Source: Lachnospiraceae bacterium (GTDB lineage Bacteria; Bacillota; Clostridia; Lachnospirales; Lachnospiraceae). Taken from it: a stretch of 64,000 nt of DNA. The stretch's first letter is position 1; every line of letters starts with the position of its first letter. A program made the position numbers and the translations under genes. The notes below the pieces were generated by a model. The model ran no database searches and was not told the origin of the DNA. It saw nothing but the letters and a program-made list of their open reading frames with translations. The stretch is from contig JAILRJ010000044.1 in the NCBI GenBank assembly GCA_024698285.1, positions 7,134 to 71,133 of the forward strand, given 5' to 3'. This document shows positions 11,180 through 53,877 of the stretch, one piece after another.

Positions 11180-11181
11180 AT

Positions 11182-12294: not shown

Positions 12295-13328
12295 TGTCCC
12301 GTCTCCCACTCTGCAAGCTCATCCCTGACATAGCTTATGGACATGAGCTTTTCCTTGACCTGTTCAACATTAAGAATAGTTGTATTGTTGGAATTAAACT
12401 CGGTGAGCTTAGCCCTCTCAACGCTTCCTTCCTTGAAGTACTTGTCGTAGTTGAGGTCTCTCTGATCCGCCGGAACGCGGTAGAAATCACCGAGATCGAA
12501 CGCCCTTGCGCATTCCTCGTTCGTAAGGAGCGTCTCGTACATCTTCTCACCGTGCCTGATACCGATGACTCTGACTTCGTTATCCGCGTTAAACAGTTCC
12601 TTCACCGCGGTTGCAAGAGTCTCTATCGTACACGCCGGTGCCTTCTGTACCATGATATCCCCCGCATCGGCGTTGCCGAATGCGAAAATCACAAGCTCCA
12701 CTGCCTCCTCAAGACTCATGATGAATCTCGTCATCGTAGGTTCCGTAACCGTAAGCGGAAGTCCCTGTTTGATCTGATCGATGAACAGAGGGATAACGGA
12801 GCCTCTCGAGCACATAACGTTACCGTATCTCGTTCCGCATATGAGAGTCCTGTCGGGATCGACCGTACGTGATTTTGCAACGAACACCTTCTCCATCATG
12901 GCTTTGCTCGTACCCATGGCATTAACGGGATACGCAGCCTTATCGGTCGAAAGACATATGACCTTTCTGACTCCGGCTTCGATCGCGCATGTGAGCACGT
13001 TATCGGTTCCGATGACGTTTGTCCTGACCGCTTCCATCGGGAAGAATTCGCAGCTCGGTACCTGCTTGAGGGCTGCGGCATGGAAAATGTAATCCACTCC
13101 GTGCATCGCATCGCGCACGCTCTGTATGTTCCTGACATCACCTATGTAGTATTTGATCTTAGGATTGTTGTAGTGATGACGCATGTCATCCTGCTTCTTC
13201 TCGTCTCTCGAGAAGATCCTGATCTCCCTGATGTCTGTCTCGAGGAATCTCCGAAGAACGGCGTTTCCGAACGATCCCGTTCCCCCGGTGATCAGAAGTG
13301 TTTTGTCTTTGAATATGCTCTCAGTCAT
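12291..13328 (-). CDS. capE: UDP-GlcNAc 4,6-dehydratase/5-epimerase (inverting), CapE/FnlA/PseB family
   Basis: FKDKTLLITGGTGSFGNAVLRRFL...IRIFSRDEKKQDDMRHHY...YYIGDVRN...IFHAAALKQVPSCEF is the hallmark of FnlA/CapE/PseB. I prefer ATG 13328 (MTESIFKDK), which overlaps the capD stop as ATGACTGA. Confidence 0.85.
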   Translation of the reverse strand: MTESIFKDKTLLITGGTGSFGNAVLRRFLETDIREIRIFSRDEKKQDDMRHHYNNPKIKYYIGDVRNIQSVRDAMHGVDYIFHAAALKQVPSCEFFPMEAVRTNVIGTDNVLTCAIEAGVRKVICLSTDKAAYPVNAMGTSKAMMEKVFVAKSRTVDPDRTLICGTRYGNVMCSRGSVIPLFIDQIKQGLPLTVTEPTMTRFIMSLEEAVELVIFAFGNADAGDIMVQKAPACTIETLATAVKELFNADNEVRVIGIRHGEKMYETLLTNEECARAFDLGDFYRVPADQRDLNYDKYFKEGSVERAKLTEFNSNNTTILNVEQVKEKLMSISYVRDELAEWETGH

Positions 13329-15246
13329 TTGTAGGCTCCCATTTGTGAGGTTTATTGTCGTATGATCTGTCAACGGGGATCGTCCCGTCGGGATTTCTCA
13401 TCTGATATGTGGGCACGATCTTCTTGACCCACTTGCGGATCGTCATGTCATCGGTCTCATCCTTTGACAGTTCGTTCATTATCTCGAGTTCTCTGAAGAA
13501 CTCTTCCTCATCGAATTCGATCGGCTTGCCTATATGGATCTTGCTGTTGGCCGTATCCTGCAGGCCCTCCTCCTCCATGAGCATCTCCTCATAGAGCTTC
13601 TCTCCGGGGCGAAGTCCCGTGAACTGTATCTGGATATCTTCTCCGGGAACGTATCCCGACAGACGTATCAGATTTATCGCAAGGTCGAGTATCCTTACCG
13701 GCTCACCCATCTCGAGAACGAATATCTCTCCGCCTTTTGCGTATGCACCGGCCTGAAGCACAAGAGATACCGCTTCGGGGATCGTCATGAAGTATCTGAT
13801 GATGTTCGGATGCGTTACCGTGACGGGTCCACCCTCTTCGATCTGCTTCTTAAAGAGCGGTATTACCGAACCGTTGCTTCCGAGTACGTTTCCGAACCTT
13901 ACCGCCACGAATTCGGTGTTGCTCTTCTGGTTGTAAGACTGGACGATCATCTCGCATATACGCTTGCTCGCACCCATGATGTTCGTCGGATTGACCGCCT
14001 TGTCCGTGGAGATCATGACGAATCTTCCCGTTCCGTAACGGGATGCAGCCTCCGCAAGCTTCCATGTGCCCATGACGTTGTTCTTGATCGCCTCGTTCGG
14101 AGAATCCTCCATCAGCGGAACATGCTTGTGGGCAGCCGCATGATAAACGATATCGGGATGATACTTCTCAAATACCGAATTGACCCTGTTCGTATTCCTG
14201 ACGCTTCCGATGAGCACTTTAAGGTCAAGTTCGGGATAATTTCTCGACAGCTCCTGCTGTATCGCATATGCGCTGTTCTCGTAAATATCGAATATGATCA
14301 GCTGCTTGGGTCTGTGGGTCGCTATCTGGCGGCACAGCTCGCTTCCTATCGATCCGCCTCCGCCCGTGACAAGGATGACCTTATCCTTAACGTAGCTCAT
14401 TACCGATTCGAGATCGATCTGAACCTGGTCGCGGCCGAGAAGATCGGCTATATCGACTTTACGAAGCTGGCTGACATTGACCTCCCCGTTAACGAGCTGG
14501 TACATTCCCGGAAGAGTCTTAAGCTCACACTTCGTCTGCTTGCATATCTCGAGTATCTCGCGGATGACTTTCTTCGAAGCGGTCGGCATCGCTATGATTA
14601 TCTCGTCGATGTCGTACTTGGCCGCGTTCTCTATGATCGCGTCTCTTCCGCCCACGACCTTGACGCCGTGTATGTAATTGCCTATCTTGGTCGAATCGTC
14701 ATCAATGACACACATCGCGTTCTTCTCGATGTAGCTTGAGGAACGCATCTCACGGATCAGCGAATTGCCCGCATCCCCGGCTCCGATTATCATTACGTTC
14801 ACACTCTTGGCGTTACTGACGCGTTTTTCTATGAACGTCCTGAAGACCCTGTAGAAAAACCTCGTGATCGCAACAAGTGCCAGCAGGAATCCGCCGAAGA
14901 ACACATAACAGCTTCTCGGATACGTCCATTTAAGCACCAGGTTTACGACCAACATCTGTATGACCGCCGAGAAGAAACATGCACCGAGTATCGAGAACAT
15001 CTCGGGTGCGCCCGCGTATTCCCACAGGCTCTGGTACAGATGGAACAGCCAGAACAGTATGAGCGTTAATATTATCGAATAGGGAAGGAATTTGGCAGCC
15101 GTCTCGCCGTATACCTTTTCGGGTATCTGGGTGACGGAAAAATCAAATCTCGCTATGAGTGCAAGATACGTTGCGACAACAACCGAAAGAGCGTCGCAAA
15201 TCATCAGCCCGATTCTTCTTATAACCAATTGTCTGCTTTTTATCAT
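13321..15246 (-). CDS. capD: Membrane-bound UDP-GlcNAc 4,6-dehydratase, CapD/WbpM/PglF family
   Basis: 641 aa. Four N-terminal TM helices, then MIIGAGDAGNSLIREM and VTGGGGSIGSELCRQI double Rossmann signatures, then YHAAAHKHVPLME. Confidence 0.9.
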   Translation of the reverse strand: MIKSRQLVIRRIGLMICDALSVVVATYLALIARFDFSVTQIPEKVYGETAAKFLPYSIILTLILFWLFHLYQSLWEYAGAPEMFSILGACFFSAVIQMLVVNLVLKWTYPRSCYVFFGGFLLALVAITRFFYRVFRTFIEKRVSNAKSVNVMIIGAGDAGNSLIREMRSSSYIEKNAMCVIDDDSTKIGNYIHGVKVVGGRDAIIENAAKYDIDEIIIAMPTASKKVIREILEICKQTKCELKTLPGMYQLVNGEVNVSQLRKVDIADLLGRDQVQIDLESVMSYVKDKVILVTGGGGSIGSELCRQIATHRPKQLIIFDIYENSAYAIQQELSRNYPELDLKVLIGSVRNTNRVNSVFEKYHPDIVYHAAAHKHVPLMEDSPNEAIKNNVMGTWKLAEAASRYGTGRFVMISTDKAVNPTNIMGASKRICEMIVQSYNQKSNTEFVAVRFGNVLGSNGSVIPLFKKQIEEGGPVTVTHPNIIRYFMTIPEAVSLVLQAGAYAKGGEIFVLEMGEPVRILDLAINLIRLSGYVPGEDIQIQFTGLRPGEKLYEEMLMEEEGLQDTANSKIHIGKPIEFDEEEFFRELEIMNELSKDETDDMTIRKWVKKIVPTYQMRNPDGTIPVDRSYDNKPHKWEPTND

Positions 15247-17878: not shown

Positions 17879-19087
17879 TCATTCCTTAAAGTCGATCCGG
17901 CTGTTTGCAAGAAGAAGCAGCAACAGCAGGTTGACCGTGTAATTCGTCCATATCAGATCCACGTCGAAGAACGATTCGAAGAACACCGCGAAGACGGCCG
18001 TAAGTGCGCAAAGTGCGACTTTTCGCGAAGCGATCCCGTCGCGCAGTGCGAACAGACGTCTGAACATAAGAAACACCGTAAGCGCAAACACTGTAAGGCC
18101 GTGTATGACGAGGATGTTATACATCGCGTTGTGAACATTGAATTCAAAGAAGGACGTGATCGTAACATTTGTACCGATTCCCGTCAGGGGCTTTGACCTG
18201 AAGTAATTCCAGAACTCGAGCCATATCGCCTCACGCCCCGAGAAGATGTTCTTGTAGAAGAACGGCATCCTGAAGTTAACCCCGGTCGTTCCGAGCCAGA
18301 TGTAAAATGCCACAAACAGGAGCGATCCGAATGTCGCGAGGATACAGACCGTATAATAGAATCCCTTACGTTCCCAGAGCTTCTTCGGTATGACAAAACG
18401 GAGTATCATAAACGCCCCGAGCATGATGAACGCGCCCCGTGATCTGTGATAAAGGGCTATCTGGAAACACTTTACGAGTGCGATCGTTGTAAGAAGCCCT
18501 GCGATGATATGCTTCTCGTAAAGCTCATCAAAGAAAGGCAGGACGCACAGCATCGAGAACATCGTAAACGTCGCGGCCGTATTCGTGTTCATCGCGAACG
18601 ACGTGTAATCCGCGAACATCCACGTGTACACCCCGAAAAACCAGTATATGAGCATAAGTGTGTAGAGACTCCCGAACAGATATATCTGCCATTTCGCAAA
18701 CTTTATCTGCGACGACAGATACCATACGAGGGCAAAATCCGCCATGACGAAGAAACATCCGAGTCCGCTGTCCACGATCAGTATGTTTACGGCCGTGATG
18801 ACAACAAGCAGGAAAAGGGCGATAAAATCAATATCCCTCGCTTTTATCTTCCGGATGGGATTGACATTGACAAGCGCGATGGCTGCCAGAATGACAAACA
18901 CGAACACCCCCACGTATTTTTCCGTCAGTCCGTAAAACCTCGGAACGAAGAATGTGAGGGTATAGAACACAAAGAGACAAAGGATGAGAAGTGTATTTAT
19001 AACATCCCGTATCGTGCTCTCTTCTTTTATTTTTCCGAAACAAGCTTTGACAGTTTCGATACCAAAGCCGTGCTTACCGTTTTCCAT
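17879..19087 (-). CDS. Wzy_C / O-antigen ligase-like polymerase, paralog 2
   Basis: FFYKNIFSGREAIWLEFWNYFRSKPLTGIGTN...FNVHNAMYNILVIHG aligns by eye with paralog 1. I prefer ATG 19087 (SD GGGAGA) over TTG 19102. It overlaps the 3' end of the upstream GT4 gene by 61 nt. Confidence 0.7.
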   Translation of the reverse strand: MENGKHGFGIETVKACFGKIKEESTIRDVINTLLILCLFVFYTLTFFVPRFYGLTEKYVGVFVFVILAAIALVNVNPIRKIKARDIDFIALFLLVVITAVNILIVDSGLGCFFVMADFALVWYLSSQIKFAKWQIYLFGSLYTLMLIYWFFGVYTWMFADYTSFAMNTNTAATFTMFSMLCVLPFFDELYEKHIIAGLLTTIALVKCFQIALYHRSRGAFIMLGAFMILRFVIPKKLWERKGFYYTVCILATFGSLLFVAFYIWLGTTGVNFRMPFFYKNIFSGREAIWLEFWNYFRSKPLTGIGTNVTITSFFEFNVHNAMYNILVIHGLTVFALTVFLMFRRLFALRDGIASRKVALCALTAVFAVFFESFFDVDLIWTNYTVNLLLLLLLANSRIDFKE

Positions 19088-20025
19088 GAATGGTTCTCCC
19101 AATCAAACCCTGCCGACAGTCTTTCGGCATTGGGATTTTCCAGAAGATATCTTATCTTTGCGGCTATCTCTTCGGGATCGTCATACCGCCTGATCACATC
19201 CTCGTCCCGAATATTCCCAATTACTTCCAGGGCGCCCACCGCGCCTGAGCACAGGATAGGGCAACCGCACGAGAGTGCTTCCACAGGTGCCAGGCCGAAC
19301 GTCTCAAAGCAACTGTTCTGAACAAACAGCGCCGCCTCATCAAACAGCCTTACACCTTCGTCAAAGGGGACTATTCCCCTGTTATCGACATGATCATACG
19401 AATCTATCTCTTCGGAATCGGCACCTTTGTCCCCGATAACACACAGGTACAGTTTGTCATCATACTCTTTCCTAAGCTTCTCAACGGCCTCGCAGATGTA
19501 TTTGATCTTCTTACGGGGCATTCCGCCTCCGATAGAGAAGATCATGTGACGCTCCCTGTCCTCGCGTTTTTTCGAGTTGGAAAGAAGAGCACTGTCGATC
19601 CCGTTCGTTACATGATCGATCTTATCCGCATACATAGGATAATGGTCTTTTAGCCACTCGCCAAACCCGGCGCTCACGGCTATGACAAGATCCGCAAGCT
19701 CGAGGGTCTTCCTCTCGATCCTGTTCATCTCCTCATCGGGCTCGAGATTGATCCCGTTTTCATGCTCTACACATCCGTGCATTATGTATGCACTCGGTTT
19801 CTTCAGTATTTTAGCGGCTTTCAGGCCAAGTATGTTCTGTTTTGAGTATCCGGAGTACACAACAACGTCCGCCCGGATCGTATTCAAAATGATCTCGGGG
19901 ACGCGTGCGATCTTACCCCTTCTTTTCTGATAAAGGGTACCTTCGGGAAGATTCTCTATATAGTATTTGGTGACATTTGCGGGGCCCGTGCCCGAATAAT
20001 GGTCACCCGCCAGAAATATCCTCAT
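19027..20025 (-). CDS. Glycosyltransferase family 4
   Basis: 332 aa. The C-terminal half LFVQNSCFETFGLAPVEALSCGCPILCS is the GT4 E-x7-E region. ATGA overlap upstream. Confidence 0.75.
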   Translation of the reverse strand: MRIFLAGDHYSGTGPANVTKYYIENLPEGTLYQKRRGKIARVPEIILNTIRADVVVYSGYSKQNILGLKAAKILKKPSAYIMHGCVEHENGINLEPDEEMNRIERKTLELADLVIAVSAGFGEWLKDHYPMYADKIDHVTNGIDSALLSNSKKREDRERHMIFSIGGGMPRKKIKYICEAVEKLRKEYDDKLYLCVIGDKGADSEEIDSYDHVDNRGIVPFDEGVRLFDEAALFVQNSCFETFGLAPVEALSCGCPILCSGAVGALEVIGNIRDEDVIRRYDDPEEIAAKIRYLLENPNAERLSAGFDWENHSWKTVSTALVSKLSKLVSEK

Positions 20026-22938: not shown

Positions 22939-22944
22939 AACAGA

Positions 22945-40605: not shown

Positions 40606-40667
40606 TTCATTCCCCTTTCAACGCTTATATTTTCGAGTTCACATAATTAATGCATGTTATCCGATAT

Positions 40668-40696
40668 AGTATAACCCAAATCGCCCTGATTTTCAA
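40668..40696 (-). promoter_or_regulatory. Sigma-A promoter for the mbl-flagellar rod-recD2 string
   Basis: Minus strand: TTGAAA (40696-40691), exact 17-nt spacer, TATACT (40673-40668). The SD AAAGGGGA lies before ATG 40605. Confidence 0.7.
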
Positions 40697-40721
40697 TTGT
40701 AAAAGTTCTGATTTTGCGTAT

Positions 40722-40769
40722 AAAAAAGCAGCATAAAACAGGATCGGTTCCGTCCGTTTTACGCTGCTT
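40722..40769 (-). terminator. Rho-independent terminator ending the 23-kb upstream gene string
   Basis: Minus-strand RNA: AAGCAGCGUAAAAC-(16-nt loop)-GUUUUAUGCUGCUU followed by UUUUAUA. The ~14-bp stem includes one G-U pair. It lies 58 nt after the stop at 40827. Confidence 0.85.
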
Positions 40770-40826
40770 CCCTGCATGTCTAACATATATATCGGACAAA
40801 ATTACGGAAACTTTAGCGTTTATTGT

Positions 40827-41855
40827 TTACAGGTAATCTTCCGAGAAGCCGTCGCCTTCGCTGCTCGATCCGGTATCGCTGCTGCTGCTTGATTCGCTGC
40901 TGCTGCTCGATTCCTCGTGACTCTCTTCGTGGCTCTCTTCATGACTTTCCTCATGATGTTCTTCGTGGCTCGATTCACCGCCGCCACCTCCTCCGCCATC
41001 GGAACTTCCTCCGGAATCGGATGAAGAATATGAGGCTCCTCCGCCTCCGCCACCGTCAGAGCTTCCGCCGCTGTCATGATCGTCTCCGCCGTAAGGATCG
41101 GGGGATGCCGTCCATGATACGTTCGTAACTCCCGCCGAAGGTGATGTACTCTGCGGAAGAGATGATATGGTCTGCGTCGCCGCAGGTGTACTGCTCTTTG
41201 CGCCCGACTGTATGGCGGCCATCACCTGCTCGGGTGTCGTACCCGCTGCATTTGACTGTCCCCTCACTTCTTCCGAATTGTTTCTGACACCCGCAACACC
41301 TTTACCGCTGTTTGCGGCTGCTGCTGTTGCTGCGTTTGTATTCTTTGCGTTCACGTTATTTCCGATCAGAACGGTTATGCCGTTACTTGTTGCTACCGTC
41401 CCCACCGTCTCGGGATCCGCGGACACTATCTCACCTTTTTCGTTTATCGTAAGACCGAGCTGCGCAAGCTTCTTTGACGCCACACTTCTCTCCGTCTCCT
41501 CTTTCCTGTCATCGTTTTCACGATAAGGATCGGATGCCTCAACATCATCGACCGAACCGTAATCAACCCACTCGGATCCGTCCCATACTTCGAGAATACC
41601 GTCGACAACACGCACGGCCGTATCGGATCCCTGTCCGGAGCCGCCCTGTCCGTTTTGGCCCGAGGCCTGTCCCGCATATTCTTCCTGCTGCGCCTCGAGA
41701 CGTTCTATCGTGCTTTTGTATTCAGCTGTTTTGTGGCTGTATACCACACCCGTTGCAGTCGCCGTGACCGCAGCGCCCGACACGACACAAACGGCAGCCG
41801 TGACCGCAGCTTTTGTCGTAAGGTTCGGTATCAATGCAAGCAGAAAATTCTTCAT
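40827..41855 (-). CDS. Membrane-anchored or secreted low-complexity acidic protein with Ser/Gly/His/Glu-rich C-terminus
   Basis: 342-aa ORF with strong SD (AAGGAGAG) and an N-terminal hydrophobic anchor LTTKAAVTAAVCVVSGAAVTATATGVV. The C-terminus reads ...SGGSSDGGGGGGASYSSSDSGGSSDGGGGGGGESSHEEHHEESHEESHEESHEESSSSSESSSSSDTGSSSEGDGFSEDYL. Confidence 0.65.
   Translation of the reverse strand: MKNFLLALIPNLTTKAAVTAAVCVVSGAAVTATATGVVYSHKTAEYKSTIERLEAQQEEYAGQASGQNGQGGSGQGSDTAVRVVDGILEVWDGSEWVDYGSVDDVEASDPYRENDDRKEETERSVASKKLAQLGLTINEKGEIVSADPETVGTVATSNGITVLIGNNVNAKNTNAATAAAANSGKGVAGVRNNSEEVRGQSNAAGTTPEQVMAAIQSGAKSSTPAATQTISSLPQSTSPSAGVTNVSWTASPDPYGGDDHDSGGSSDGGGGGGASYSSSDSGGSSDGGGGGGGESSHEEHHEESHEESHEESHEESSSSSESSSSSDTGSSSEGDGFSEDYL
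40908..40977 (-). repeat. Imperfect 12-nt tandem coding repeats (HEES units)
   Basis: The plus strand reads ttcctcgtgact ctcttcgtggct ctcttcatgact ttcctcatgatg ttcttcgtggct, encoding (S)HEE(S/H) repeated about 5 times. Flanking Ser and Gly runs extend the low complexity to about 40830-41090. Confidence 0.7.
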
Positions 41856-41872
41856 GATCTCTCCTTATATCC

Positions 41873-43765
41873 TCAGTTTGCAGCCGGAATGATCCCCAGT
41901 GCCGTCATGTCATCTATGATGACACCCCAGGTGACCGTACCGTCGTCGTTGTCCTTTCCGCATATCACATCATATCCTGCCTGATTCGGATGGTATCCGT
42001 CCGGGAAGTACTTCTTGAAGTTCGAATGCTTCTCGGGTGTCGGATCGGCATTCGGATCATTGTTCCTGTTCGGCAGTCCCATAGGATCGAGTATATCGTC
42101 ATAAAGGTTTATGAAATAAACGTTCTTGCCCAGCGTATTCTTGTAGTAGTTCGATACGCTCTTCTGAATATAGCAGTAATCGTCAAGAACCTTTCCGGTA
42201 CTCAGGTTTTTCGTGATCGTTCCCGGTCCGCTTATCCACCATGCACGAAGAGGTGAGAGCACCATTATCTCGGCGTTGGGATATTCGTTTACAAGCTTCT
42301 TTATAGTTCTGTCGACACCTATGCAGTATGACTTGTCGGCATCGTAATAGGTGACTCCGAATTCGTTTGTGATAAAGCCGGTTCCGTCCTTGTTCTCACC
42401 GAATATTGCCGTATTCTCATGTAACCCTTCTCCCTGATCCTTGTACGCCCAGTCATTGACTCCAGCCATCAGGAAAATATAATCGGGATCCTTGCCCTGG
42501 CTTGTCGCGGTCTCGATCGCGATATCGGCAAGATCCGGCATGTTGTAAAGGTTAGCTCCGGGCTCCGAATATGTCGCGCCGCCGTTTGCAACGAGCGTAC
42601 AGTCAACCCTTGCATTAAGCCTTGATGCAAGTCTCTTTCCGATCTGAACGCTCGGCTGTCTGCTGACCTGCTTGTAATCCGACGGTTTCGACGGTCCGTG
42701 TTCTATATTGACACCATCCTTTATCGTCATTCCCATCATTATGCTGTCGCCGATAAAGTAAGCGCTGTATGTCGTAGTCGGATTTGAAGGATCGGGCGGA
42801 TTCGTCGGATCACCTTCCACGGCCACTATGACATCTCTTGCGAAGTTTCTGATCTCCAAACTCTCGCTCGAATTCTCGGCGGCCTTCTTTGCGACATAAT
42901 AAGGATTACGTCCAACGATCGGTCCGTACAGGTAAACGTCTTCATCGGTCGAAGCTTTATGAAGCCTGATGTATCCTCTGAAGTATTTGTTGACATTATA
43001 GTCGACGATATCATAAAGAGAGTTGGCAAATACCGTCTTATCACCGTCGATCCTCAGCACATGATCGGCTCCACCCCTGACATAACAGGAAGCCTTGAGG
43101 ACAAGCTGATCCTCAAGCGTCATGTGTTTTTTGCTTCCCGAATTCCAGTTTCTTGAAAGTATGTGAAGATGTCCGTACTCCTCAACGGAATACTCCGTAA
43201 TGTTGTCGTCGTTCTTGAGTCCGTTTTCTTTGATATCCGTGAGGATGCTGAGCGAACATCTTATACCTCCGCTCTTTTCCTCCGTGGGCGGTTTGATCGC
43301 AAATCCTTCGTATCCTAGTATGTTGTCAAATCCATCGAGCCTTCTTACCGAATACCTTGTAACTTCGATCGTCTCGGGTTCGCCGGTCTGTCCGGTCTGG
43401 CCCGAAAATCCCCCTCCCTCGGGGCTCTCCTGCGTTACCCGCTTTATCACTTCCCATACGGCCATTCCGACGGGATAGCAGTTCTCATCCGTGATCTCCT
43501 TGTTGTACCTGATCGCCGTGATAAACTTTGACGAACGTTTTACCGTAACCTCGTATTCCCTTTCGTTTGACGTGGGAGAAAGTGCCACCGGTACACCGTC
43601 AAGCTCAATTCCCAGCTTATCATTGTCGTAACCGGAAGGGACCGTTATCTTTACGGTCGAATTGTCCGCATAAGCGTTTATTACAAAAAAAATGCTGACA
43701 ACGACTACCATTGTCAGTAATATGAATACTTTTTTCAAGATTGTAAACGGCCTTGTTACACTCAT
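41873..43765 (-). CDS. Secreted protein with an N-terminal domain of unknown function (~380 aa) and a C-terminal SGNH/GDSL hydrolase domain
   Basis: I prefer ATG 43765 (MSVTRPFTILKKVFILLTMVVVVSIFFVINAYA, a signal peptide), one nt after the upstream TGA. SGNH blocks: YFIGDSIMMG (Ser), ANGGATY (Gly), MAGVNDW (Asn), DGYHPN (Asp-x-x-His). Confidence 0.75.
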   Translation of the reverse strand: MSVTRPFTILKKVFILLTMVVVVSIFFVINAYADNSTVKITVPSGYDNDKLGIELDGVPVALSPTSNEREYEVTVKRSSKFITAIRYNKEITDENCYPVGMAVWEVIKRVTQESPEGGGFSGQTGQTGEPETIEVTRYSVRRLDGFDNILGYEGFAIKPPTEEKSGGIRCSLSILTDIKENGLKNDDNITEYSVEEYGHLHILSRNWNSGSKKHMTLEDQLVLKASCYVRGGADHVLRIDGDKTVFANSLYDIVDYNVNKYFRGYIRLHKASTDEDVYLYGPIVGRNPYYVAKKAAENSSESLEIRNFARDVIVAVEGDPTNPPDPSNPTTTYSAYFIGDSIMMGMTIKDGVNIEHGPSKPSDYKQVSRQPSVQIGKRLASRLNARVDCTLVANGGATYSEPGANLYNMPDLADIAIETATSQGKDPDYIFLMAGVNDWAYKDQGEGLHENTAIFGENKDGTGFITNEFGVTYYDADKSYCIGVDRTIKKLVNEYPNAEIMVLSPLRAWWISGPGTITKNLSTGKVLDDYCYIQKSVSNYYKNTLGKNVYFINLYDDILDPMGLPNRNNDPNADPTPEKHSNFKKYFPDGYHPNQAGYDVICGKDNDDGTVTWGVIIDDMTALGIIPAAN

Positions 43766-43766
43766 T

Positions 43767-44789
43767 TCAGAAATCCCCGAATCCCATCTCCCCGGCTTTC
43801 GCAACCCAGGTCGCCGCATCCGCATTTTCGACGTACAGATAATTACTGCCGTCCTCGGCATACGCATACACGACGCCGGCAAAGCCTTCAGGCTGCTCCT
43901 CTTTTGTCTTTCCGGCATCATCAAACTCACCGCTGTATGTCACTTCACCTACCGTAACATCCAGACGGTTTACATAATGCCCATCATTAATATAGCCGTT
44001 AACAACAATTATGTCAACCCCTTCGGGATCAAACTGCCTGTAACAATACTTCCCTTCTGACTTTTTGTCCGTAACTTCGACACTTCCTACACTCACTCCT
44101 CCGAAAGATATATCGCACAGATACCTGACATCCTGAGATGTTATAACCGCGCGCGTCGCAAGCTGATCCGAGGAAACCTCGGCAAAAAGCGCATCACCCG
44201 AATACTCCGTGTTCGACGTGAATGTTCCGTTATCAATATAGAAGCTCTTCTTCCAGTCATCCGATCCGATGATCTCTTTTGCCGCCTCCGGCGAAAAATC
44301 GCCCGATCCGCAATCCTTCAGCGCTTCTACAAGACTTGTCAAAAGTTCTCCCGCCTTGTCGTCATCGGCGTCGGTTATCCTAAGCGTCACGGAACTTAAC
44401 AGATTACCGTGCTCCTCGGTCGGGTCCGTTCTGTAAAGCATGAACAGGGCTTCCCTCTGCGATACGGTATCTCCGGCCTTCCCGCAAAGATCCGCGTAGT
44501 CTTTGTACTCGTCCTCGGTCATCTTATAGTTTCCGGCAAACTCTTTGTATATTGCGATCCTGCGATCGTCATCCGCCGATGCGAGCGCATTCCTGTAATC
44601 TTCTTCCGTGACAAGAACCGTCTCTTTTTCCCCGGACGAAGCGGCGCTTTCCTCGCCTGATGCTTCGGCAACACCAGACGCTTGTTCGGGCGCCTCTGCT
44701 TTGCCCGAACACGCCGACAGCATGACCGATACCGCGAACACTGCGGCGGCGATCCCTATTATATTTTTCTTTCGATTATCGATTCTCAT
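43767..44789 (-). CDS. Lipoprotein of unknown function
   Basis: I prefer ATG 44789: MRIDNRKKNIIGIAAAVFAVSVMLSAC with the lipobox LSAC. The mature part has no motif I recognise. Confidence 0.65.
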   Translation of the reverse strand: MRIDNRKKNIIGIAAAVFAVSVMLSACSGKAEAPEQASGVAEASGEESAASSGEKETVLVTEEDYRNALASADDDRRIAIYKEFAGNYKMTEDEYKDYADLCGKAGDTVSQREALFMLYRTDPTEEHGNLLSSVTLRITDADDDKAGELLTSLVEALKDCGSGDFSPEAAKEIIGSDDWKKSFYIDNGTFTSNTEYSGDALFAEVSSDQLATRAVITSQDVRYLCDISFGGVSVGSVEVTDKKSEGKYCYRQFDPEGVDIIVVNGYINDGHYVNRLDVTVGEVTYSGEFDDAGKTKEEQPEGFAGVVYAYAEDGSNYLYVENADAATWVAKAGEMGFGDF

Positions 44790-44790
44790 T

Positions 44791-45921
44791 TTACCCGAAT
44801 ATCGTGCGGTAGCCCGACTCTGCCACCGATCGTTCATTTACCGCGCTTATGTACTTTGTGCACTTTGCGCGTTTATCCGCCATCTGCTCTTCGCTCATAT
44901 GATACAGTTCGTCGATGGCCCTTGCAAATGCGGCCTTGTCTTTGAGAGGACATACATAACCGCATCCGTTCTCGTCAAGATCCATCCACGGTGTTGTATC
45001 GCTTATTACCGGAATGCATCCGGCGGACAGACTCTCGGCAACAACGTGCCCGTAGTTCTCTCCGAGCGTCGGAAACATAAATGCATCATAGTTTGCAAAT
45101 ATCTCCGGAACACTCTCGCTGTCGGCCTCTCCCTTGTATTCCCATTCAAAGCCCGGACGTATCTTCTTAAGCTCATCAAGTTTTTGCGAACATTCGCGAA
45201 GATAATCCGCATCCTCGCATGTACCGTATACATCAAGTCTTATCGCGTGATCATCATCGACTTTTCCGATCATGTCGGGAATGACTGTCAGATTTTTCTT
45301 GCGTGAGATTCGCGAGATAAAGCACATTTTCAGAAGGCCTTCCTCTTTGATGCGCTTATGCTCGGTAAGCCCCCGTCTCGGAAGATCCGTAGCGATAACG
45401 CATACACTGTCTTTCCCGATAACGTTCTTCAGTTCCTTCTCCTCCCTTTCGGACGAGACGGACCAGGTAACGTATTCAAACAGACCTGCCATCTTCATAT
45501 ATCGGATGAACAGGCGCTTCTTAAATCCTTTTATCTTAAACGCTTTGGGAGAAAAGGACCCCATGGACGCGACAAACAGCGGCGCCGTGATCTTCCCCAC
45601 CTTCTTAAGTTTCATCGCGATACGGGCATAATCTCCGTACGGGCCGCACACATACACGACATCCGCATCCGCTGCCAATCTTTCGATATCTTCGGCGGTA
45701 AACGCTTTCGTGTACCAGACCTTTGCGGATCCGACCGTATTATATTCGCCCGCCGTGATGTCGGGGTACGGTCTGTCATCTCCGTGATCGCGGTCAAGGC
45801 ACATGATCCGGAGATCGTATTCGCCGCCCATCCACTGCGTGAGGTTGACGATCGACCTTACCGGCCCGCCGTCACGGTATCCGGGCAGATATCTTCCCGT
45901 TATGATCAAAATCTTACGCAT
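44791..45921 (-). CDS. Glycosyltransferase family 4
   Basis: MRKILIITGRYLPGYRDGGPVRS..., and C-terminal FMFPTLGENYGHVVAESLSAGCIPVIS (E-x7-E region). Confidence 0.75.
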   Translation of the reverse strand: MRKILIITGRYLPGYRDGGPVRSIVNLTQWMGGEYDLRIMCLDRDHGDDRPYPDITAGEYNTVGSAKVWYTKAFTAEDIERLAADADVVYVCGPYGDYARIAMKLKKVGKITAPLFVASMGSFSPKAFKIKGFKKRLFIRYMKMAGLFEYVTWSVSSEREEKELKNVIGKDSVCVIATDLPRRGLTEHKRIKEEGLLKMCFISRISRKKNLTVIPDMIGKVDDDHAIRLDVYGTCEDADYLRECSQKLDELKKIRPGFEWEYKGEADSESVPEIFANYDAFMFPTLGENYGHVVAESLSAGCIPVISDTTPWMDLDENGCGYVCPLKDKAAFARAIDELYHMSEEQMADKRAKCTKYISAVNERSVAESGYRTIFG

Positions 45922-45923
45922 AA

Positions 45924-46784
45924 TCAGAGTCGTCCCTGTTTCTCATTCTCGTATATCTTCGCGTCAACAAGAAATCGGTACCAGTATGCCTGCATGAAGC
46001 AGAATATCTTTCCCTCCCTGCCGTCAAGAAATCCGAGACGGATGTAGTATCTGTAGAAATAATACGCATACGCCCTGAATCCGGCGGGTAGTCTGTAATA
46101 TATCTTCCAGCGCAGGAACCTCTTGAACTTCGCCTTCGCGTCAAGAGCATGTTCGCCGCCGAGTCCGGTTGAACCCGAAAAAGCGAGGCTGTTGAAATAG
46201 TCCTGCATCTCTCTCGTGGAGTAATTGTTGTGCTTGTCTATCCATGCGGACAGCCCTTTGTCGTCATGATGCAGGCTGTCATGCCGTACTTCGACGCTTC
46301 GGCCCTCATAGAGTACGCAGTGCTCGTCCATGCAGCGATCCTCGATGTTTCCTTTGCCGTATTTGAAGAGAAGGAGCTTTCGAAGCGGATACACTCCGCC
46401 GTGACGGATCGCGCGCCCCATAAAGTTTACCTCGAATCTGACCACGATGCCGTTAACATCGGTGTCCTCGTTCTCGTTGCAGAGCTTGTCTATCTCCGCC
46501 GCCGACTCTTTCGTCAGCTCCTCATCGGCGTCGATACGAAATACCCACTTTGTCGTGATATTCCCGTGCTCCATCCCGTAGAGAAACTGCTTCGCATAAA
46601 GGAACGGTTTGAGTTCGTTGACAAGAACATCTGCACCAAGATCCTTTGCGATCGATACCGTATCATCGGAGCTTCCCGAATCAACGACTATGATCCTTCT
46701 GACTATCGGCTTTATCGACTCTATGCACTTTTGGATGTTTACTTCCTCATTCTTCGTCAGAATGATCGCAGTGATATCAGCCAT
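45924..46784 (-). CDS. Glycosyltransferase family 2
   Basis: ITAIILTKNEEVNIQKCIESIKPIVRRIIVVDSGSSDDTVSIAKDLGADV...RIDADE. Confidence 0.8.
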   Translation of the reverse strand: MADITAIILTKNEEVNIQKCIESIKPIVRRIIVVDSGSSDDTVSIAKDLGADVLVNELKPFLYAKQFLYGMEHGNITTKWVFRIDADEELTKESAAEIDKLCNENEDTDVNGIVVRFEVNFMGRAIRHGGVYPLRKLLLFKYGKGNIEDRCMDEHCVLYEGRSVEVRHDSLHHDDKGLSAWIDKHNNYSTREMQDYFNSLAFSGSTGLGGEHALDAKAKFKRFLRWKIYYRLPAGFRAYAYYFYRYYIRLGFLDGREGKIFCFMQAYWYRFLVDAKIYENEKQGRL

Positions 46785-46785
46785 T

Positions 46786-47976
46786 TTATCCTACGCACTC
46801 CTTCAGCATCTTCTCTATCAGATCGATATGACGCGTCTTCGTGAAATGTTCATCGTAATAGCTTCGTGAAGCCTCGCCCATACGGCGAAAATCACCCGAC
46901 TTGGCCATTTTGTCCGCGATATCGGCAAGCGCCTTCTCATCCTCTGCCGGCGCACACATGCCGCATCTGCTCTCGTCAACGACCGCTTTTGTCTCTCCGT
47001 TTGCCGCCGCTATGACCGCCCTGCCCGCTGCCATATAAGACTGGATCTTCCCCGGAAGCGTATAGCTTATAAGGTCGTTATCGGCAAGCGTTACTATCAT
47101 CGCATCAGCCATCGCATAAAACTTCGGCATACTCTCAACCGGAAGCCTGCCATAGAACGTAACCTTATCATTAAGATTCATATCGTCACACAGTTTCTTG
47201 CATTCATCGAGTGCAAAACCGTCTCCGACGATATGCCATCTGATCCTTTCGTCGCGTACGAGCGCAGCCGCTTTTATGATCGTATCCACGCTCTGCATGT
47301 TTCCGACATTTCCGGCAAATACATAATCGATGTTATCCGTCTCTTCCTTTGCGGCAACATCGGAAAACAACTCATCCGCAAACTGCGGTATATGGACATA
47401 CTTGCCCGAACCGATCCCGAGTTCTTCCCTGAAGTACGTCTCAAACATTCGGGATGTATAACCCGTCACATTCGCTCCCTTATAGATGCGTATGCTTACG
47501 GATCTCATGAATCTGTAGAACATGCCGTTCTTATCGATCCCGAGACTCGCCAGACTTGCCGGCCAAAGATCGAGGCAGTAAAGAGCGAGGTTCTTCGTTC
47601 TTCCGAACCACTTTGCCACATACGCTGGTATGGCCATCAGGACCGGAGATAACTGATAGACGAATATCACATCAAAGTCCTTCTTCATGAATAGGGCCTT
47701 AATGCATCCGTGCCACACGAAGGACACATAGTTGCGTGCAAGTCCGACTTTGCCGGGGGTCCTCGGACGCTCCTTGACGCGTATTATATGCACACCGTTT
47801 ACCGTCTCGTCTCTGTGCTCTTTGCCCTTGTATTCCTCCGGGATAACACCCATCGGGTAATTGGGAAGTCCCGTAAGAACGGTTACATCGTGTCCGCGCC
47901 TTACAAGTTCTTCACAGACCTCATGTATCCTGAACGGTTCCGGATGATAATACTGACATACTACCAATATCTTCAT
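46786..47976 (-). CDS. WbuB/CapL-like GT4 glycosyltransferase (family that includes L-FucNAc transferases)
   Basis: MKILVVCQYYHPEPFRIHEVCEELVRRGHDVTVLTGLPNYPMG is the characteristic WbuB/WcaI-type N-terminus. Confidence 0.7.
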   Translation of the reverse strand: MKILVVCQYYHPEPFRIHEVCEELVRRGHDVTVLTGLPNYPMGVIPEEYKGKEHRDETVNGVHIIRVKERPRTPGKVGLARNYVSFVWHGCIKALFMKKDFDVIFVYQLSPVLMAIPAYVAKWFGRTKNLALYCLDLWPASLASLGIDKNGMFYRFMRSVSIRIYKGANVTGYTSRMFETYFREELGIGSGKYVHIPQFADELFSDVAAKEETDNIDYVFAGNVGNMQSVDTIIKAAALVRDERIRWHIVGDGFALDECKKLCDDMNLNDKVTFYGRLPVESMPKFYAMADAMIVTLADNDLISYTLPGKIQSYMAAGRAVIAAANGETKAVVDESRCGMCAPAEDEKALADIADKMAKSGDFRRMGEASRSYYDEHFTKTRHIDLIEKMLKECVG

Positions 47977-48917
47977 TGTCTGTCGTCACGCTTTTCTTTC
48001 TTGCCCTTCGCTTCCAGGTACTCTCTTACCTCATCGCCTATGGCACTTCGAAACGTCCTCGGGTCGTATCCGAAATCACGCGAAGCCTCCTCGTGAGGAT
48101 ACACTCTCGGCTCGCACAGCCTCTGGACTTTTTCGCGAAGGTCTATCTTTCCTATCGATACGAGATAGAAAAACCATGCACCCGCATAGGCAATCGGGAA
48201 CGGGACACTTACAAACCTCATTCTCTTCGACAGATATGCACCCATTTCGATCAGCATATCCCGAAGCGTTATCTCCTCTCCGCCCGAGAGAATATAATCG
48301 TGTCCGCCCGTTATCTTCTCGCTCACAAGAACATCGTAATAAGCCTTTCCGAGATCGGCGAAATGAACCGGCTGAAGTTCGTACTCGGCATTGTTGACAA
48401 CCGGCATGAACGGGAGCTTATCAACCATCCTTATAAACGATGCCACGTTATGATCGTTTATCGTTCCGTATATCATCGTCGGACGAAGTATCGTCAGAAT
48501 TATATTTTTGCTCTTCGACATCATGTATACGAAATCGTCTATGTTCCTGTATTCCTCACCGGCCTCTTTGTACTTGGAATAGATGCCTGTGGTGTGAACG
48601 CATATCATCCTTCTGACAAAGTTGTTTGCCGCCGCATGTACTATCTGTCTCGACCAGTGGATCCCGGCTATATGAACGATCGTATCGACACCGAGGAATG
48701 CCTCTCCGAGAAACAGTTCATCCTCCAGATCGCCGTACATACACTGGACATCAAAAGAGGGAAGGATATCTTTATCCCTCTCCCGCTCTTTGTGAAGAAG
48801 AAGCCGTATCCCTCCGGGAAACATCTTCCTGATCTTCTCCTGATTCTGTTCCAGGCGGTAGGCAAATGCCTGTCCCGATTTGCCGGTTATCCCGGTTATG
48901 GCCAGTATCTCATCCAT
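47973..48917 (-). CDS. NAD-dependent epimerase/dehydratase family SDR (CapN-like position)
   Basis: ILAITGITGKSGQAF glycine-rich start and a YSKYK catalytic motif region. ATGA overlap with the downstream GT and an 8-nt overlap with the upstream sugar transferase. Confidence 0.7.
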   Translation of the reverse strand: MDEILAITGITGKSGQAFAYRLEQNQEKIRKMFPGGIRLLLHKERERDKDILPSFDVQCMYGDLEDELFLGEAFLGVDTIVHIAGIHWSRQIVHAAANNFVRRMICVHTTGIYSKYKEAGEEYRNIDDFVYMMSKSKNIILTILRPTMIYGTINDHNVASFIRMVDKLPFMPVVNNAEYELQPVHFADLGKAYYDVLVSEKITGGHDYILSGGEEITLRDMLIEMGAYLSKRMRFVSVPFPIAYAGAWFFYLVSIGKIDLREKVQRLCEPRVYPHEEASRDFGYDPRTFRSAIGDEVREYLEAKGKKEKRDDRQ

Positions 48918-49512
48918 TCTTCGGTCCCCCTTCGCTCACGCCCTCTGCCTTTGCCACCGCAAAGAACGTTCCGAAAAAGCACTTTAAATCGAACGCAAAA
49001 CTTAATTTTTTGACATACTCGCCGTCATATGCCGCCTTGACGTCGATCGGAAGTTCATCTCTTCCGTTTATCTGAGCCCATCCGGTAAGTCCCGGCTTCA
49101 CGTCGTTCGCTCCGTACTTGTCCCGCTCATCGAGAAGATCATACTGATTCCACAGAGCGGGGCGCGGTCCGACAAAACTCATCTGTCCGGCAAATATGTT
49201 GAAAAGCTGGGGTATCTCATCGATAGAATATTTCCTGATCGCCTCCTGAAAAGGTGACAGGAGCGATGCGGCGTTCTTGAGTTCATGCGTCGGTGTATCC
49301 TTCGGCGCGCTCACCGGCATCGAACGGAACTTTATTATCATGAAATGGGATCTGTGTATCCCGACACGTTTCTGTTTGAAGAACACCGGTCCCGGTGAGT
49401 CGATCTTGATCATCACGGCGACAACGAGCATCGGTATCGCGGCAACTATGATACCTATCCCCGACAGTACGATATCGATGATCCTCTTAATGACGTTTTT
49501 GTAAATGCTCAT
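48910..49512 (-). CDS. Small monotopic phosphoglycosyl transferase (PglC/CapM/WbaP-C-terminal type)
   Basis: 200 aa: [44 protein letters not shown]...FMIIKFRSM...[21 protein letters not shown]...[14 protein letters not shown] overlap with the uvrA stop. Confidence 0.9.
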
Positions 49513-52358
49513 TTTGATTTATCCCGTTTTAAGAGCGGAGCCACATATGCTCCGGTATATGATCTCTTGTCCTTGGCAACTTCCTCGGGCGTGCCTTTCG
49601 CTATGACCTGTCCGCCTCCGTCTCCGCCTTCGGGTCCGAGATCGATGATGTAGTCCGCGGTCTTGATCACGTCGAGATTATGCTCGATAACAACGACGGT
49701 GTTACCGCCTTCCGTAAGTCTCTGGAGTATCTCGACAAGCTTGTGTACATCCGCGAAATGAAGTCCGGTCGTCGGTTCGTCAAGGATATATATGGTCCTG
49801 CCCGTACTTCTTCTCGACAGTTCCGTCGCAAGTTTGATACGCTGCGCCTCTCCTCCCGACAGTGTCGTTGAAGGCTGTCCGAGCTTGATGTATCCGAGTC
49901 CGACCTCGTTAAGTGTTTCTATCTTTCTTCTTATTGCCGGAATGTTCTCGAAGAACGGCAATGCCTCTTCCACGGTCATGTCGAGAACATCGTAAATGTT
50001 CTTTCCCTTGTACCTGACCTCGAGAGTTTCCCTGTTGTATCTCTTTCCCTTGCAGACCTCACACGGCACATACACATCGGGAAGGAAATGCATCTCGATC
50101 TTTATTATACCATCTCCGCTGCAGGCTTCGCATCTTCCGCCTTTTACGTTGAACGAAAATCGTCCCTTCGCGTATCCTCTTTCCTTCGCATCTCTTGTCG
50201 TTGCGAACAGATCCCTTATAAGGTCGAACGCTCCGGTATACGTTGCGGGATTGGATCTGGGTGTTCTTCCTATCGGAGACTGGTCTATCGCAATTATCTT
50301 GTCCAGTTCCTTAATCCCGTCGATCCCGTCATGCTTTCCGGGTATTGTCCTTGCCCTGTTAAGATCACGGGCGAGGCGTTTATACAGTATCTCGTTTATG
50401 AGCGAGCTCTTTCCGGATCCCGATACTCCCGTGACGCATGTAAATACTCCGAGGGGTATATCCACGTTTATGCCCTTGAGGTTATTCTCGCATGCTCCTT
50501 TTATCTTCAGGAACTTCTTGGGCTTACGGCGCTTGGCCGGAACGGGTATGAACAGTTCGTGACTGAGGTATCTTCCGGTCACGGAATCTTTGCACTTCAT
50601 GATGTCGGAAACGCTGCCGCAGGCAACGACCTTGCCGCCCTCGCTTCCCGCTCCCGGTCCAATATCCACTATATGATCCGCCGCCATCATGGTCTCTTCG
50701 TCATGTTCGACCACGATAAGGCTGTTCCCGAGATCTCTGAGATTGGCAAGAGCACCGAGCAGTTTTCCGTTATCCCTCTGGTGCAGTCCGATGCTCGGCT
50801 CGTCAAGTATATACGCTACGCCTACAAGACCCGAACCTATCTGTGTCGCAAGTCTTATTCTCTGGGCTTCTCCGCCCGAGAGCGATCCCGTTGCTCTTGC
50901 AAGCGTCAGGTAGTCAAGTCCGACCTCAACGAGGAACCCGAGTCTGGCCTTTATCTCTTTCAGAATTCTGGCTCCGATGAGTTCCTGCTGTTTCGTAAGT
51001 TTCAGACCGTCAACAAAATCCTTAAGCTTTACTATCGACATATTCGTCATCTCGTGGATGTTGAGTCCTCCGACGGTCACAGCCAGCGCACCGGGCTTGA
51101 GCCTCATGCCGTGGCAGGCATCACACGGTGTGAATCTCATGAACGTTTCGTATTCGGCTTTGGAACTTTCTGAAGCGGTCTCTCTGTATCTTCTCTCGAC
51201 ATTTTTGATGATACCCTCAAAGGGAACATCATAAACGCCCTCTCCGCGCATACCCTTATAGGATACTTTCAGGACTTCTCCGCCCGTTCCGTCGATGATA
51301 AGATCGTGTATCTTTTTCGGGTATTTTTCAAACGGTGTATCAAGACTGAACTTGTATTTTTTCCGCATGGCATCGAGTGTCGCATACGTGAAACTGCTCT
51401 TGTCGTTACATGACTGCCATCCCGGAACGGCTATCGCTCCTTCCATGATCGAAAGCGACTTATCGGGAATGATCAGGTCCTCATCGAATCTCATCTTGTA
51501 TCCGAGTCCCGCACACTCCGGGCATGCACCGAACGGATTGTTGAACGAGAAACTTCTCGGTTCAATCTCGTCAATGCTTATATTACAGTCCGGACATGAA
51601 AAGCTCTGGGAGAAAGTCAGCATCTTGCCGTCAATCACGTCAACATATACGAGTCCGTCCGACAGTTGCATGACGGTCTCTATCGAGTCCGTCAGTCTTT
51701 TGTTGATGCCTTCTTTGACCACAAGTCTGTCGACGATTATCTCGATATTGTGCTTAATATTCTTGTCGAGCTTTATATCCTCGGAAAGCTCATACATATT
51801 GCCGTCAACACGTACTCTTACATAACCGCTCTTTGCGGCGCGCTCGAACACTTTTGAATGCTCACCTTTACGGCCCCTGACTACAGGAGCAAGAAGCTGG
51901 ATCTTCGTTCCTTCCGGAAGACTCATGACAAAATCCGTCATCTGGTCAACGCTTTGGCGCTTTATCTCCTTGCCGCAGTTCGGACAATGCGGCGTACCTA
52001 TCCTTGCATACAAAAGACGGAAATAATCATATATTTCCGTTACGGTCCCCACGGTAGATCTGGGGTTCTTGTTCGTTGATTTCTGATCTATCGATATAGC
52101 GGGAGGAAGTCCCTCTATCGAATCAACTTCGGGCTTTTCCATCTGGCCCAGAAACTGCCTTGCATAGGACGACAGCGATTCCATGTATCGTCTCTGTCCT
52201 TCCGCATAGATGGTGTCAAACGCCAGTGATGATTTTCCGGACCCGGAAAGTCCAGTCAGTACGACCAGTTCATTTCTGGGGATGTCTATATCGATATCTT
52301 TGAGATTATGCTCTTTTGCGCCCCTGATGCGTATCATGGGGATCTTTTTTTCAGCCAT
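49509..52358 (-). CDS. uvrA: Excinuclease ABC subunit A
   Basis: 949 aa. [50 protein letters not shown], zinc-finger Cys pairs and a second Walker [11 protein letters not shown]. Confidence 0.98.
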
Positions 52359-53874: not shown

Positions 53875-53877
53875 AGA

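Follow-up and report, generated by a model that had tools for sequence, protein, structure and literature searches.

What becomes of a glycan whose assembly module encodes neither a flippase nor a polymerase? This question is raised by eight minus-strand genes that follow uvrA in the stretch of DNA analyzed here (hereafter the window; 64,000 nt, contig C2:7134-71133 of a 2.0-Mb, 81%-complete metagenome-assembled genome of a Lachnospiraceae bacterium). The genes encode, in this order, a small phosphoglycosyl transferase (PGT), a short-chain dehydrogenase/reductase (SDR), three glycosyltransferases (GTs; GT4a, GT2b, and GT4b), a lipoprotein, a secreted SGNH protein, and a Ser/Gly-rich anchored protein. 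A first-pass annotation of the same sequence described this gene order, which was confirmed by open reading frames (ORFs) and domains, and offered two explanations: export of the lipid-linked oligosaccharide may rely on machinery encoded in the left part of the window, or the module may serve protein O-glycosylation with the Ser-rich protein as the acceptor. As that annotation had stated, no flippase or polymerase was found within 40827-49512; the eight products have one hydrophobic segment at most, and no polytopic protein is among them.

We consider it probable that the first five genes form the initiation and early-assembly block of a conventional Wzx/Wzy heteropolysaccharide pathway, the rest of which is encoded at a distance of 26-48 kb, in the left-hand locus of this contig, and that the final three genes constitute a separate, rare cassette. 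The block would thus be absent from its usual place beside capD and, in one subclade of the genus, a Lachnospiraceae genus of the rumen, located in the variable interval between uvrA and mbl, where it would be read with uvrA.

The five-gene block in related genomes

In a related contig (L026), the block is found inside a polysaccharide locus, in the order PGTbig-GT2x-GT2y-GT4y-Wzx1-Wzy2-CapD-[PGT-SDR-GT4a-GT2b-GT4b]-Wzy1-FnlA-FnlB-FnlC-WbsX-GT2c-unk548. Every gene in this order is orthologous to a gene of the window (38-85% identity; 62% for the SDR), and the Wzy1 ortholog (62% identity) directly follows GT4b. In three genomes of the same genus as the window (G022, G015, and G019), a homologous block lies immediately upstream of CapD-FnlA-FnlB-FnlC-...-WbsX. 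The suggestion that the module uses the export machinery of the left-hand locus is therefore better founded than when it was first made.

Among the fetched loci of the genus, 11 have the order uvrA-PGT-SDR-GT4a-GT2b-GT4b-...-mbl, seven have uvrA and mbl as direct neighbors, and three carry other inserts. G022 and G019, whose blocks adjoin capD, belong to the seven. In three genomes with the uvrA-linked block (G062, G005, and G009), the left locus resembles that of the window: CapD abuts FnlA, and no small PGT, SDR, or GT4a is encoded there. The SDR gene, present in 16 of 41 genomes of the genus, occurs in one copy in each (that of G004 is split over two contig ends), and this copy is linked either to uvrA or to capD, in one place or the other per genome. 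FnlB/CapF is encoded in 40 of the 41 genomes, including all those with the SDR, and its co-occurrence with the SDR is therefore non-discriminating; the FnlB of G026 is unusually divergent (51% identity).

The composition of the block also varies. In L027, three genes (PGT-SDR-GT4a) stand behind uvrA and GT2b-GT4b is absent, whereas in G015 GT2b-GT4b lies upstream of the PGT gene; in G019 only a GT4b fragment is found there, at the start of the contig. Judging from the arrangements in L027 and G015, the block is made up of two sub-blocks, PGT-SDR-GT4a being the constant unit and GT2b-GT4b traveling together. In the SDR and GT4a trees, CapD-linked versions are found on both deep branches, and a move from the CapD site to the uvrA site appears to be the simpler reading.

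The left-hand locus and the missing initiator

The left part of the window comprises two clusters rather than one locus. Cluster 1 has the order PGTbig-GT2x-GT2y-GT4y-Wzy1-Wzx1-Wzy2, and cluster 2 the order CapD-FnlA-FnlB-FnlC-WbsX-GT2c-unk548-NeuB-Wzx2-CMP-transferase-GT4z. The gene that heads cluster 1 is a large PGT gene (448-457 aa, ~21637-23007, minus strand), the 5' half of which is overlain by a 503-aa plus-strand ORF (22243-23754) with no Pfam match. In cluster 2, CapD has four N-terminal hydrophobic segments, and FnlA and FnlB correspond to Staphylococcus aureus CapE (3.7e-156) and Cap5F (1.8e-132), respectively, as judged by PDB matches.

No PF02397 match was found in the block from CapD to GT4z. 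The genome holds six PF02397 genes; apart from the small PGT gene, all encode large forms with multiple transmembrane (TM) segments, each in its own locus, one of them just beyond the window on contig C2. In total, this contig carries three PGT genes, three PF01943 flippase genes, and two Wzy_C genes. The single PF00953 match of the genome sits on contig C107. We propose the small PGT as the initiator of the cluster 2 glycan because it is the only candidate left for a block that lacks a PGT. Cluster 2 has sugar-nucleotide enzymes, GTs, and a flippase without an initiator, and the uvrA-linked block has an initiator and GTs without a flippase or polymerase, so that the two appear to be halves of one locus. 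Furthermore, a scan of the left locus brought up no aminotransferase, and a reductase would therefore be expected as the consumer of the CapD product.

A further polysaccharide locus is found on contig C53 of the genome (G000 C53:335-18328). It comprises genes for a large PGT, Wzz (PF02706), and an LCP protein (PF03816), together with a weak Wzy_C match; no other chain-length regulator or LCP ligase was found in the assembly.

Proposed pathway

Comparable pathways have been characterized in other bacteria. In S. aureus, CapD and CapN make UDP-D-FucNAc (UDP-activated N-acetyl-D-fucosamine), which CapM transfers to undecaprenyl phosphate (Und-P); CapL adds L-FucNAc made by CapE/F/G, and the CapD-CapN-CapM-CapL sequence has been reconstituted (PMC6441080). 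In Rhizobium etli, WreU transfers the keto-sugar first, and WreQ then reduces it on the lipid (PMC11257628). GTs of the WbuB group transfer L-FucNAc-type sugars (PMC7685785).

In the window, CapD/PglF would make UDP-4-keto-6-deoxy-GlcNAc. The small PGT and the SDR would yield undecaprenyl diphosphate (Und-PP)-linked D-FucNAc or N-acetyl-D-quinovosamine (D-QuiNAc), in the order CapN-then-CapM or WreU-then-WreQ. GT4a would add the L-FucNAc-type sugar made by CapE/F/G, and GT2b and GT4b would extend the unit to Und-PP-D-FucNAc/QuiNAc-L-FucNAc-X-Y, which WbsX, GT2c, NeuB/CMP-transferase, and GT4z of the left locus may complete. Wzx2 would flip the unit and Wzy1 would polymerize it, while the Wzz and LCP proteins of contig C53 are candidates to control the chain length of the glycan and attach it to the wall.

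The properties of the core proteins are consistent with these roles. The small PGT matches PglC structures over its full length (4.6e-35), including the SIDEIPQL Asp-Glu motif. The SDR family, in which the TGxTGKSG and YSKYK motifs are invariant, is always paired with the small PGT and adjoins CapD in G022, G015, G019, and L026. It was detected in none of 150 other genera of the bacterial family at 1e-25, and its 120 best of 1775 homologs are, where named, called 'hypothetical protein' or given a generic epimerase name. We propose that it is a 4-ketoreductase for the CapD product, its substrate being either the UDP-sugar, as for CapN, or the lipid-linked sugar, as for WreQ. GT4a aligns end to end with the GT4 encoded at the wbuB position in Escherichia coli O108 (3e-17) and is the only window protein, among those compared, that aligns with this enzyme over its full length; GT4b, GT4y, and GT4z do not. 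On the basis of this alignment, it is proposed to be the transferase for the FnlABC-derived L-sugar (CapL/WbuB role). The N-terminal part of GT2b is similar to the GT-A domains of SunS and GmaR. All five core ORFs are intact, with 64-92% identity across 11 species and invariant catalytic motifs.

For export, Wzx2 is the candidate flippase and Wzy1 the putative polymerase of the repeat unit. The Wzy_C sequence does not separate a polymerase from a ligase or an oligosaccharyltransferase; in L026, there is a single Wzy_C gene in either cluster, as would be the case for polymerases.

Several points weigh against this assignment. The SDR matches only NDUFA9/HpnA-like proteins, and GT4a is only 23% identical to the enzyme at the WbuB position. 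Wzx2 was assigned by elimination among the three PGTs and three Wzx proteins of contig C2, and Wzy1 from a single contig, L026. The PGT and flippase counts are lower bounds because the genome is 81% complete. The direction of relocation is left unsettled by the SDR and GT4a trees at the decisive nodes. In G026, the small PGT has been lost (L009 8341-8364): the SDR gene begins ~22 nt after uvrA and SDR-GT4-GT2-GT4 is intact, so that the block either can persist without its own initiator or is decaying there. Finally, the genes after unk548 differ in G022 and G019, in which no Wzx2 ortholog follows; these genes replace NeuB-Wzx2-CMP-transferase, which indicates that the distal half of the locus varies between species.

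A contiguous complete locus in G022 and G019 was considered and ruled out on account of these differences. The genes found after unk548 (L042 4313-10637 and L043 4660-11089) encode an MMPL-like protein of ~850-880 aa with 10-11 TM segments and a protein of 1250-1314 aa.

Comparison with known glycan systems

The proposed pathway most resembles parts of several characterized systems. As in S. aureus cap5/cap8, there are a membrane CapD/PglF dehydratase, very strong matches to CapE and CapF orthologs, a ~200-aa monotopic PGT beside a ~300-aa reductase-like SDR, a GT-B enzyme as the candidate L-FucNAc transferase, and, as proposed here, Wzx/Wzy-type export. In contrast to the single operon of S. 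aureus, the genes are divided between two sites separated by 26-48 kb, the SDR has no demonstrable homology to CapN, and the sugars are predicted from the genes. Moreover, no CapABC is encoded adjacently, Wzz and LCP being on another contig, and extra GTs and a NeuB/CMP-transferase branch are present.

With R. etli WreV/WreU/WreQ, the system shares a small PGT paired with a 4-reductase, a proposed one in the window, downstream of a 4,6-dehydratase, and the transfer-then-reduce-on-lipid order is a possible alternative here. However, the R. etli genes belong to a Gram-negative O-antigen pathway, and the SDR is likened to WreQ by its proposed role. E. coli O-antigen clusters with fnlABC-wbuB (O108, O26) likewise combine fnlA, fnlB, and fnlC with a WbuB-family GT4, for which GT4a is the candidate here, but their synthesis is initiated by WecA, encoded outside the cluster, instead of a PglC-type PGT. 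The Campylobacter/Neisseria pgl systems have in common with the window the PglF-like dehydratase and the PglC-like PGT. They differ in that neither a PglE aminotransferase, a PglD acetyltransferase, nor an identifiable oligosaccharyltransferase is present here, the block lies in a polymerase-containing polysaccharide locus in relatives, and the candidate acceptor is not conserved with the glycan block.

Organization of the eight-gene module

On the minus strand, the genes run uvrB, GT2, MBOAT, AlgX-like, and uvrA, followed by the eight-gene module (Table 1). The junctions, described in the first-pass annotation as 17 nt or less with several overlaps, measure -4 nt (ATGA) for uvrA/PGT, -8 nt for PGT/SDR, and -4 nt for SDR/GT4a, and then +1, +2, +1, +1, and +17 nt. 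Translational coupling to uvrA had also been proposed. The 4-nt overlap is real in this genome and is limited to it; the relatives keep same-strand adjacency with a gap of a few to ~60 nt. No tie of the module to DNA repair is indicated beyond its position in a variable interval.

The strong terminator was likewise borne out. It lies about 50-110 nt past the stop codon of the Ser-rich gene; a simple terminator scan missed the closing hairpin, which was revealed by folding energy compared with shuffles. The mbl gene begins 221 nt beyond the operon and has its own promoter-like site. Two start codons were corrected relative to the longest ORFs, that of the lipoprotein to ATG 44789 and that of the SGNH protein to ATG 43765, giving 630 aa instead of a 685-aa ORF and a signal peptide that ends in ..AYA. 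A sigma-70-like site (TTGACA-17 nt-TATATT, 11 of 12 matches, window 44017-43989, minus strand) is found within the lipoprotein gene, in its 3' part. It precedes the SGNH start by 224 nt and could drive the SGNH and Ser-rich genes separately.

Table 1. Features of the uvrA-linked module and of the left-hand locus in the window
Feature	Position	Strand	Evidence or remark
uvrA	49509..52358	-	upstream neighbor; stop overlaps PGT start by 4 nt
Small PGT (monotopic, PglC/CapM/WreU type, 200 aa)	48910..49512	-	PF02397 7.5e-56
SDR (atypical)	47973..48917	-	weak NAD-binding matches, all below Pfam cut-offs
GT4a (WbuB/WcaI-like subfamily)	46786..47976	-	NF007640 WcaI family 1.5e-34, below its cut-off
GT2b (286 aa)	45924..46784	-	PF00535 1.3e-13
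GT4b (second GT4, 376 aa)	44791..45921	-	PF00534 3.8e-15
Lipoprotein (340 aa)	43767..44789	-	lipobox LSAC
Secreted SGNH protein (630 aa)	41873..43765	-	PF13472 2.8e-11, above cut-off
Ser/Gly-rich anchored protein	40827..41855	-	TM anchor, composition
Intrinsic terminator closing the operon	40715..40776	-	hairpin -28.6 kcal/mol, z = -5.0 vs shuffles, then U-run
Wzy_C protein Wzy1	17879..19102	-	PF04932 31.0 bits, just under 31.7-bit cut-off
CapD/PglF-type membrane UDP-GlcNAc 4,6-dehydratase	13321..15246	-	PF02719 1.1e-123; PglF (WlaL) 1.7e-90
CapE/CapF/CapG (FnlA/B/C), UDP-L-FucNAc-type sugar genes	10049..13373	-	Epimerase_2 1e-85
Wzx-type flippase Wzx2	3793..5301	-	PF01943 3.8e-17

The three tail genes and alternative explanations

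The three tail proteins belong to very small families. Among 5.8 billion clusters, the Ser-rich protein has 13 homologs and the lipoprotein 23, the SGNH protein has ~11 full-length relatives among 1.84 billion representatives, and the trio was found in two other species among 185,579 reference genomes. The three genes always occur together, but not always with GT genes: they follow GT4b in G000, G001, and L036, follow GT4b-DUF6020 in L032 and L034, follow a weak PMT_2-like membrane protein on a GCA_016648615 contig, and stand alone in L033 and L035, where the surrounding genes are unrelated and do not include GT genes. Among the 11 genomes of the genus with the uvrA-linked core and fetched flanks, only two have the trio; in the other nine, the interval between GT4b and mbl is empty or holds unrelated cargo, in the form of an alcohol dehydrogenase, a FliB-like gene, a SleB-like hydrolase, and an S1-domain protein. 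The trio is also absent near the CapD-linked versions (L026, G022, G015, and G019) and in L027. Most likely, the trio is an envelope cassette in its own right, of rare occurrence, which in a few species came to rest at the 3' end of the block.

The lipoprotein is predicted to consist of a helical domain and a beta-hairpin-repeat domain (AF2 model, pLDDT 85.6); a fold search of the PDB gave no match at E<=0.001 and only weak OspA/MORN/TPR-like resemblance. The SGNH protein has N-terminal beta-rich domains and a C-terminal SGNH esterase/acyltransferase domain, the fold of which resembles carbohydrate O-acetylesterases/acyltransferases. The protein has catalytic blocks I, II, III, and V (FIGDSIM, ANGG, AGVNDW, and PDGYHP), and its family conserves them. 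No fold match was obtained for the N-terminal domains in a search whose results were dominated by the esterase domain. Residues ~138-320 (window 42806-43354) form a ~180-aa domain without Pfam annotation that recurs in other organisms at the C-termini of BspA-LRR, SpoIID/SH3_3, Amidase_3, Big_2/Flg_new, and transglutaminase/CAP proteins. Judging from this recurrence in surface proteins, it is possibly a new wall-binding module; a single-sequence search of its own genome found only the protein itself and no further copy. In the Ser-rich protein, 83 of the last 92 residues are S, G, E, D, or H. Its conserved parts are the TM segment, a VRVVDGILEVWDGSxW block, and a C-terminal EGDGFSE motif, and a variable Gly/Ser/Asp/Glu/His-rich tract lies between the conserved islands and the EGDGFSE end. 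The role of the trio is most likely extracytoplasmic O-acyl editing of a surface glycan or the wall, an assignment made with low confidence.

In L032 (5497-7047) and L034 (5622-7172), the polytopic GT-C-like protein encoded right before the trio is a DUF6020 protein of 516 aa; on the GCA_016648615 contig, the protein that precedes the trio has 530 aa and the weak PMT_2 match. The window genome has one DUF6020 gene, located elsewhere (C41:4355-5554).

The eight genes could instead form one unit in which the trio processes or anchors the glycan of the module, the SGNH protein (de-)O-acetylating it and the lipoprotein and the acidic protein serving as a scaffold. The gaps of 1 to 17 nt, the single terminator, the position of the trio after GT4b or GT4b-DUF6020 in five loci, and the carbohydrate esterase/acyltransferase-like fold with intact catalytic blocks are all in line with this. 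However, the GT-linked cases all belong to one subclade and may go back to one insertion event in the uvrA-mbl hot spot, an interval that carries unrelated cargo in other species. Most core-bearing genomes lack the trio, which in two loci stands alone, and the promoter-like site inside the lipoprotein gene also argues against a single unit. We therefore regard this explanation as unlikely.

We also hold it to be improbable that the trio is an undescribed self-contained envelope cassette of rumen Lachnospiraceae in which the Ser/Gly-rich protein would be glycosylated by a GT-C enzyme, such as the DUF6020 or PMT_2-like proteins, from a polyprenyl-phosphate sugar, or would act as a covalent polysaccharide anchor, with the SGNH protein targeted to the wall through residues 138-320.

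Protein O-glycosylation as a self-contained short-glycan pathway, in which a lipid-linked tetrasaccharide is flipped and moved en bloc onto the Ser-rich protein by a PglL-like Wzy_C protein, seems very unlikely. The PglC-type small PGT is of the kind found in pgl systems, a Ser/Gly-rich and probably extracytoplasmic protein is encoded in the same operon, the two Wzy_C paralogs of the contig could by sequence be polymerases or ligases alike, and the trio follows a GT-C-like membrane protein in L032, L034, and GCA_016648615. Nevertheless, the acceptor idea presupposes joint conservation of the three tail genes and the GT genes, which the relatives do not show: the distribution described above separates the supposed acceptor from the glycan block in both directions. 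In addition, the block is elsewhere embedded among CapD/FnlABC/Wzy/WbsX heteropolysaccharide genes, and the presence of one Wzy_C gene per cluster in L026 is the pattern of polymerases.

It is scarcely credible that the uvrA-mbl hot spot merely harbors a silent or decaying remnant of the block, with the left locus using another of the six PGTs of the genome. The PGT gene is missing in G026, GT4b is inverted in three genomes, and L027 has just three of the genes, but the five ORFs are intact and conserved over 11 species with invariant catalytic motifs, one copy is found wherever the SDR occurs, and the other five PGTs are large multi-TM proteins with loci of their own.

The intervals flanking uvrA

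Comparison of window 39607-49512 with L006-L025 shows the uvrA-mbl interval to be a hot spot of variation within the genus, empty in seven of the genomes and occupied by the glycan block in 11. Besides the SleB-like, FliB-like, alcohol dehydrogenase, and S1-domain genes already mentioned, its other cargo includes a 479-aa NTPase-like gene and a 743-755-aa secreted protein with a CapA-like protein and a MATE transporter. Genes of mobile elements were not seen in this interval in L006-L025. GT4b alone is inverted in G062 (L006), G014 (L007), and G023 (L010), and G062 also has ~4 kb of unrelated genes between GT4b and GT2b. Phase-variable inversion of GT4b was considered and is unsupported, as there are no convincing flanking inverted repeats in G023 or in the window.

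On the other side of uvrA, the GT2, MBOAT, and AlgX-like genes located between uvrB and uvrA (window 52351-58073) are kept in either subclade of the genus, as well as in L027. In the compared loci (L004-L018, L021, L022, and L027), MBOAT and AlgX are 46-84% identical, compared with 76-93% for uvrA and uvrB. The complete set of three was not detected in L019 (partial), L023, and L024.

Implications

As a glycan system, the core offers little that is new, being an ordinary split locus, while the trio is a small unexplained family. Like the tail genes, the putative wall-targeting domain represents a small and rare family; these families are worth recording, although they are not yet interpretable. 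For the annotation of Lachnospiraceae from the rumen, the split carries a warning, namely that glycan prediction based on gene clusters will miscall both halves of such a locus. The apparent anomaly of a glycan module without export is removed if the two parts are one functional locus, split by the move of an initiation block into a variable interval behind a housekeeping gene. A genus-restricted SDR annotated as a 'hypothetical protein' thereby receives a working assignment as the probable 4-ketoreductase partner of a PglC-type PGT and is linked to the CapD and CapE/F/G genes.

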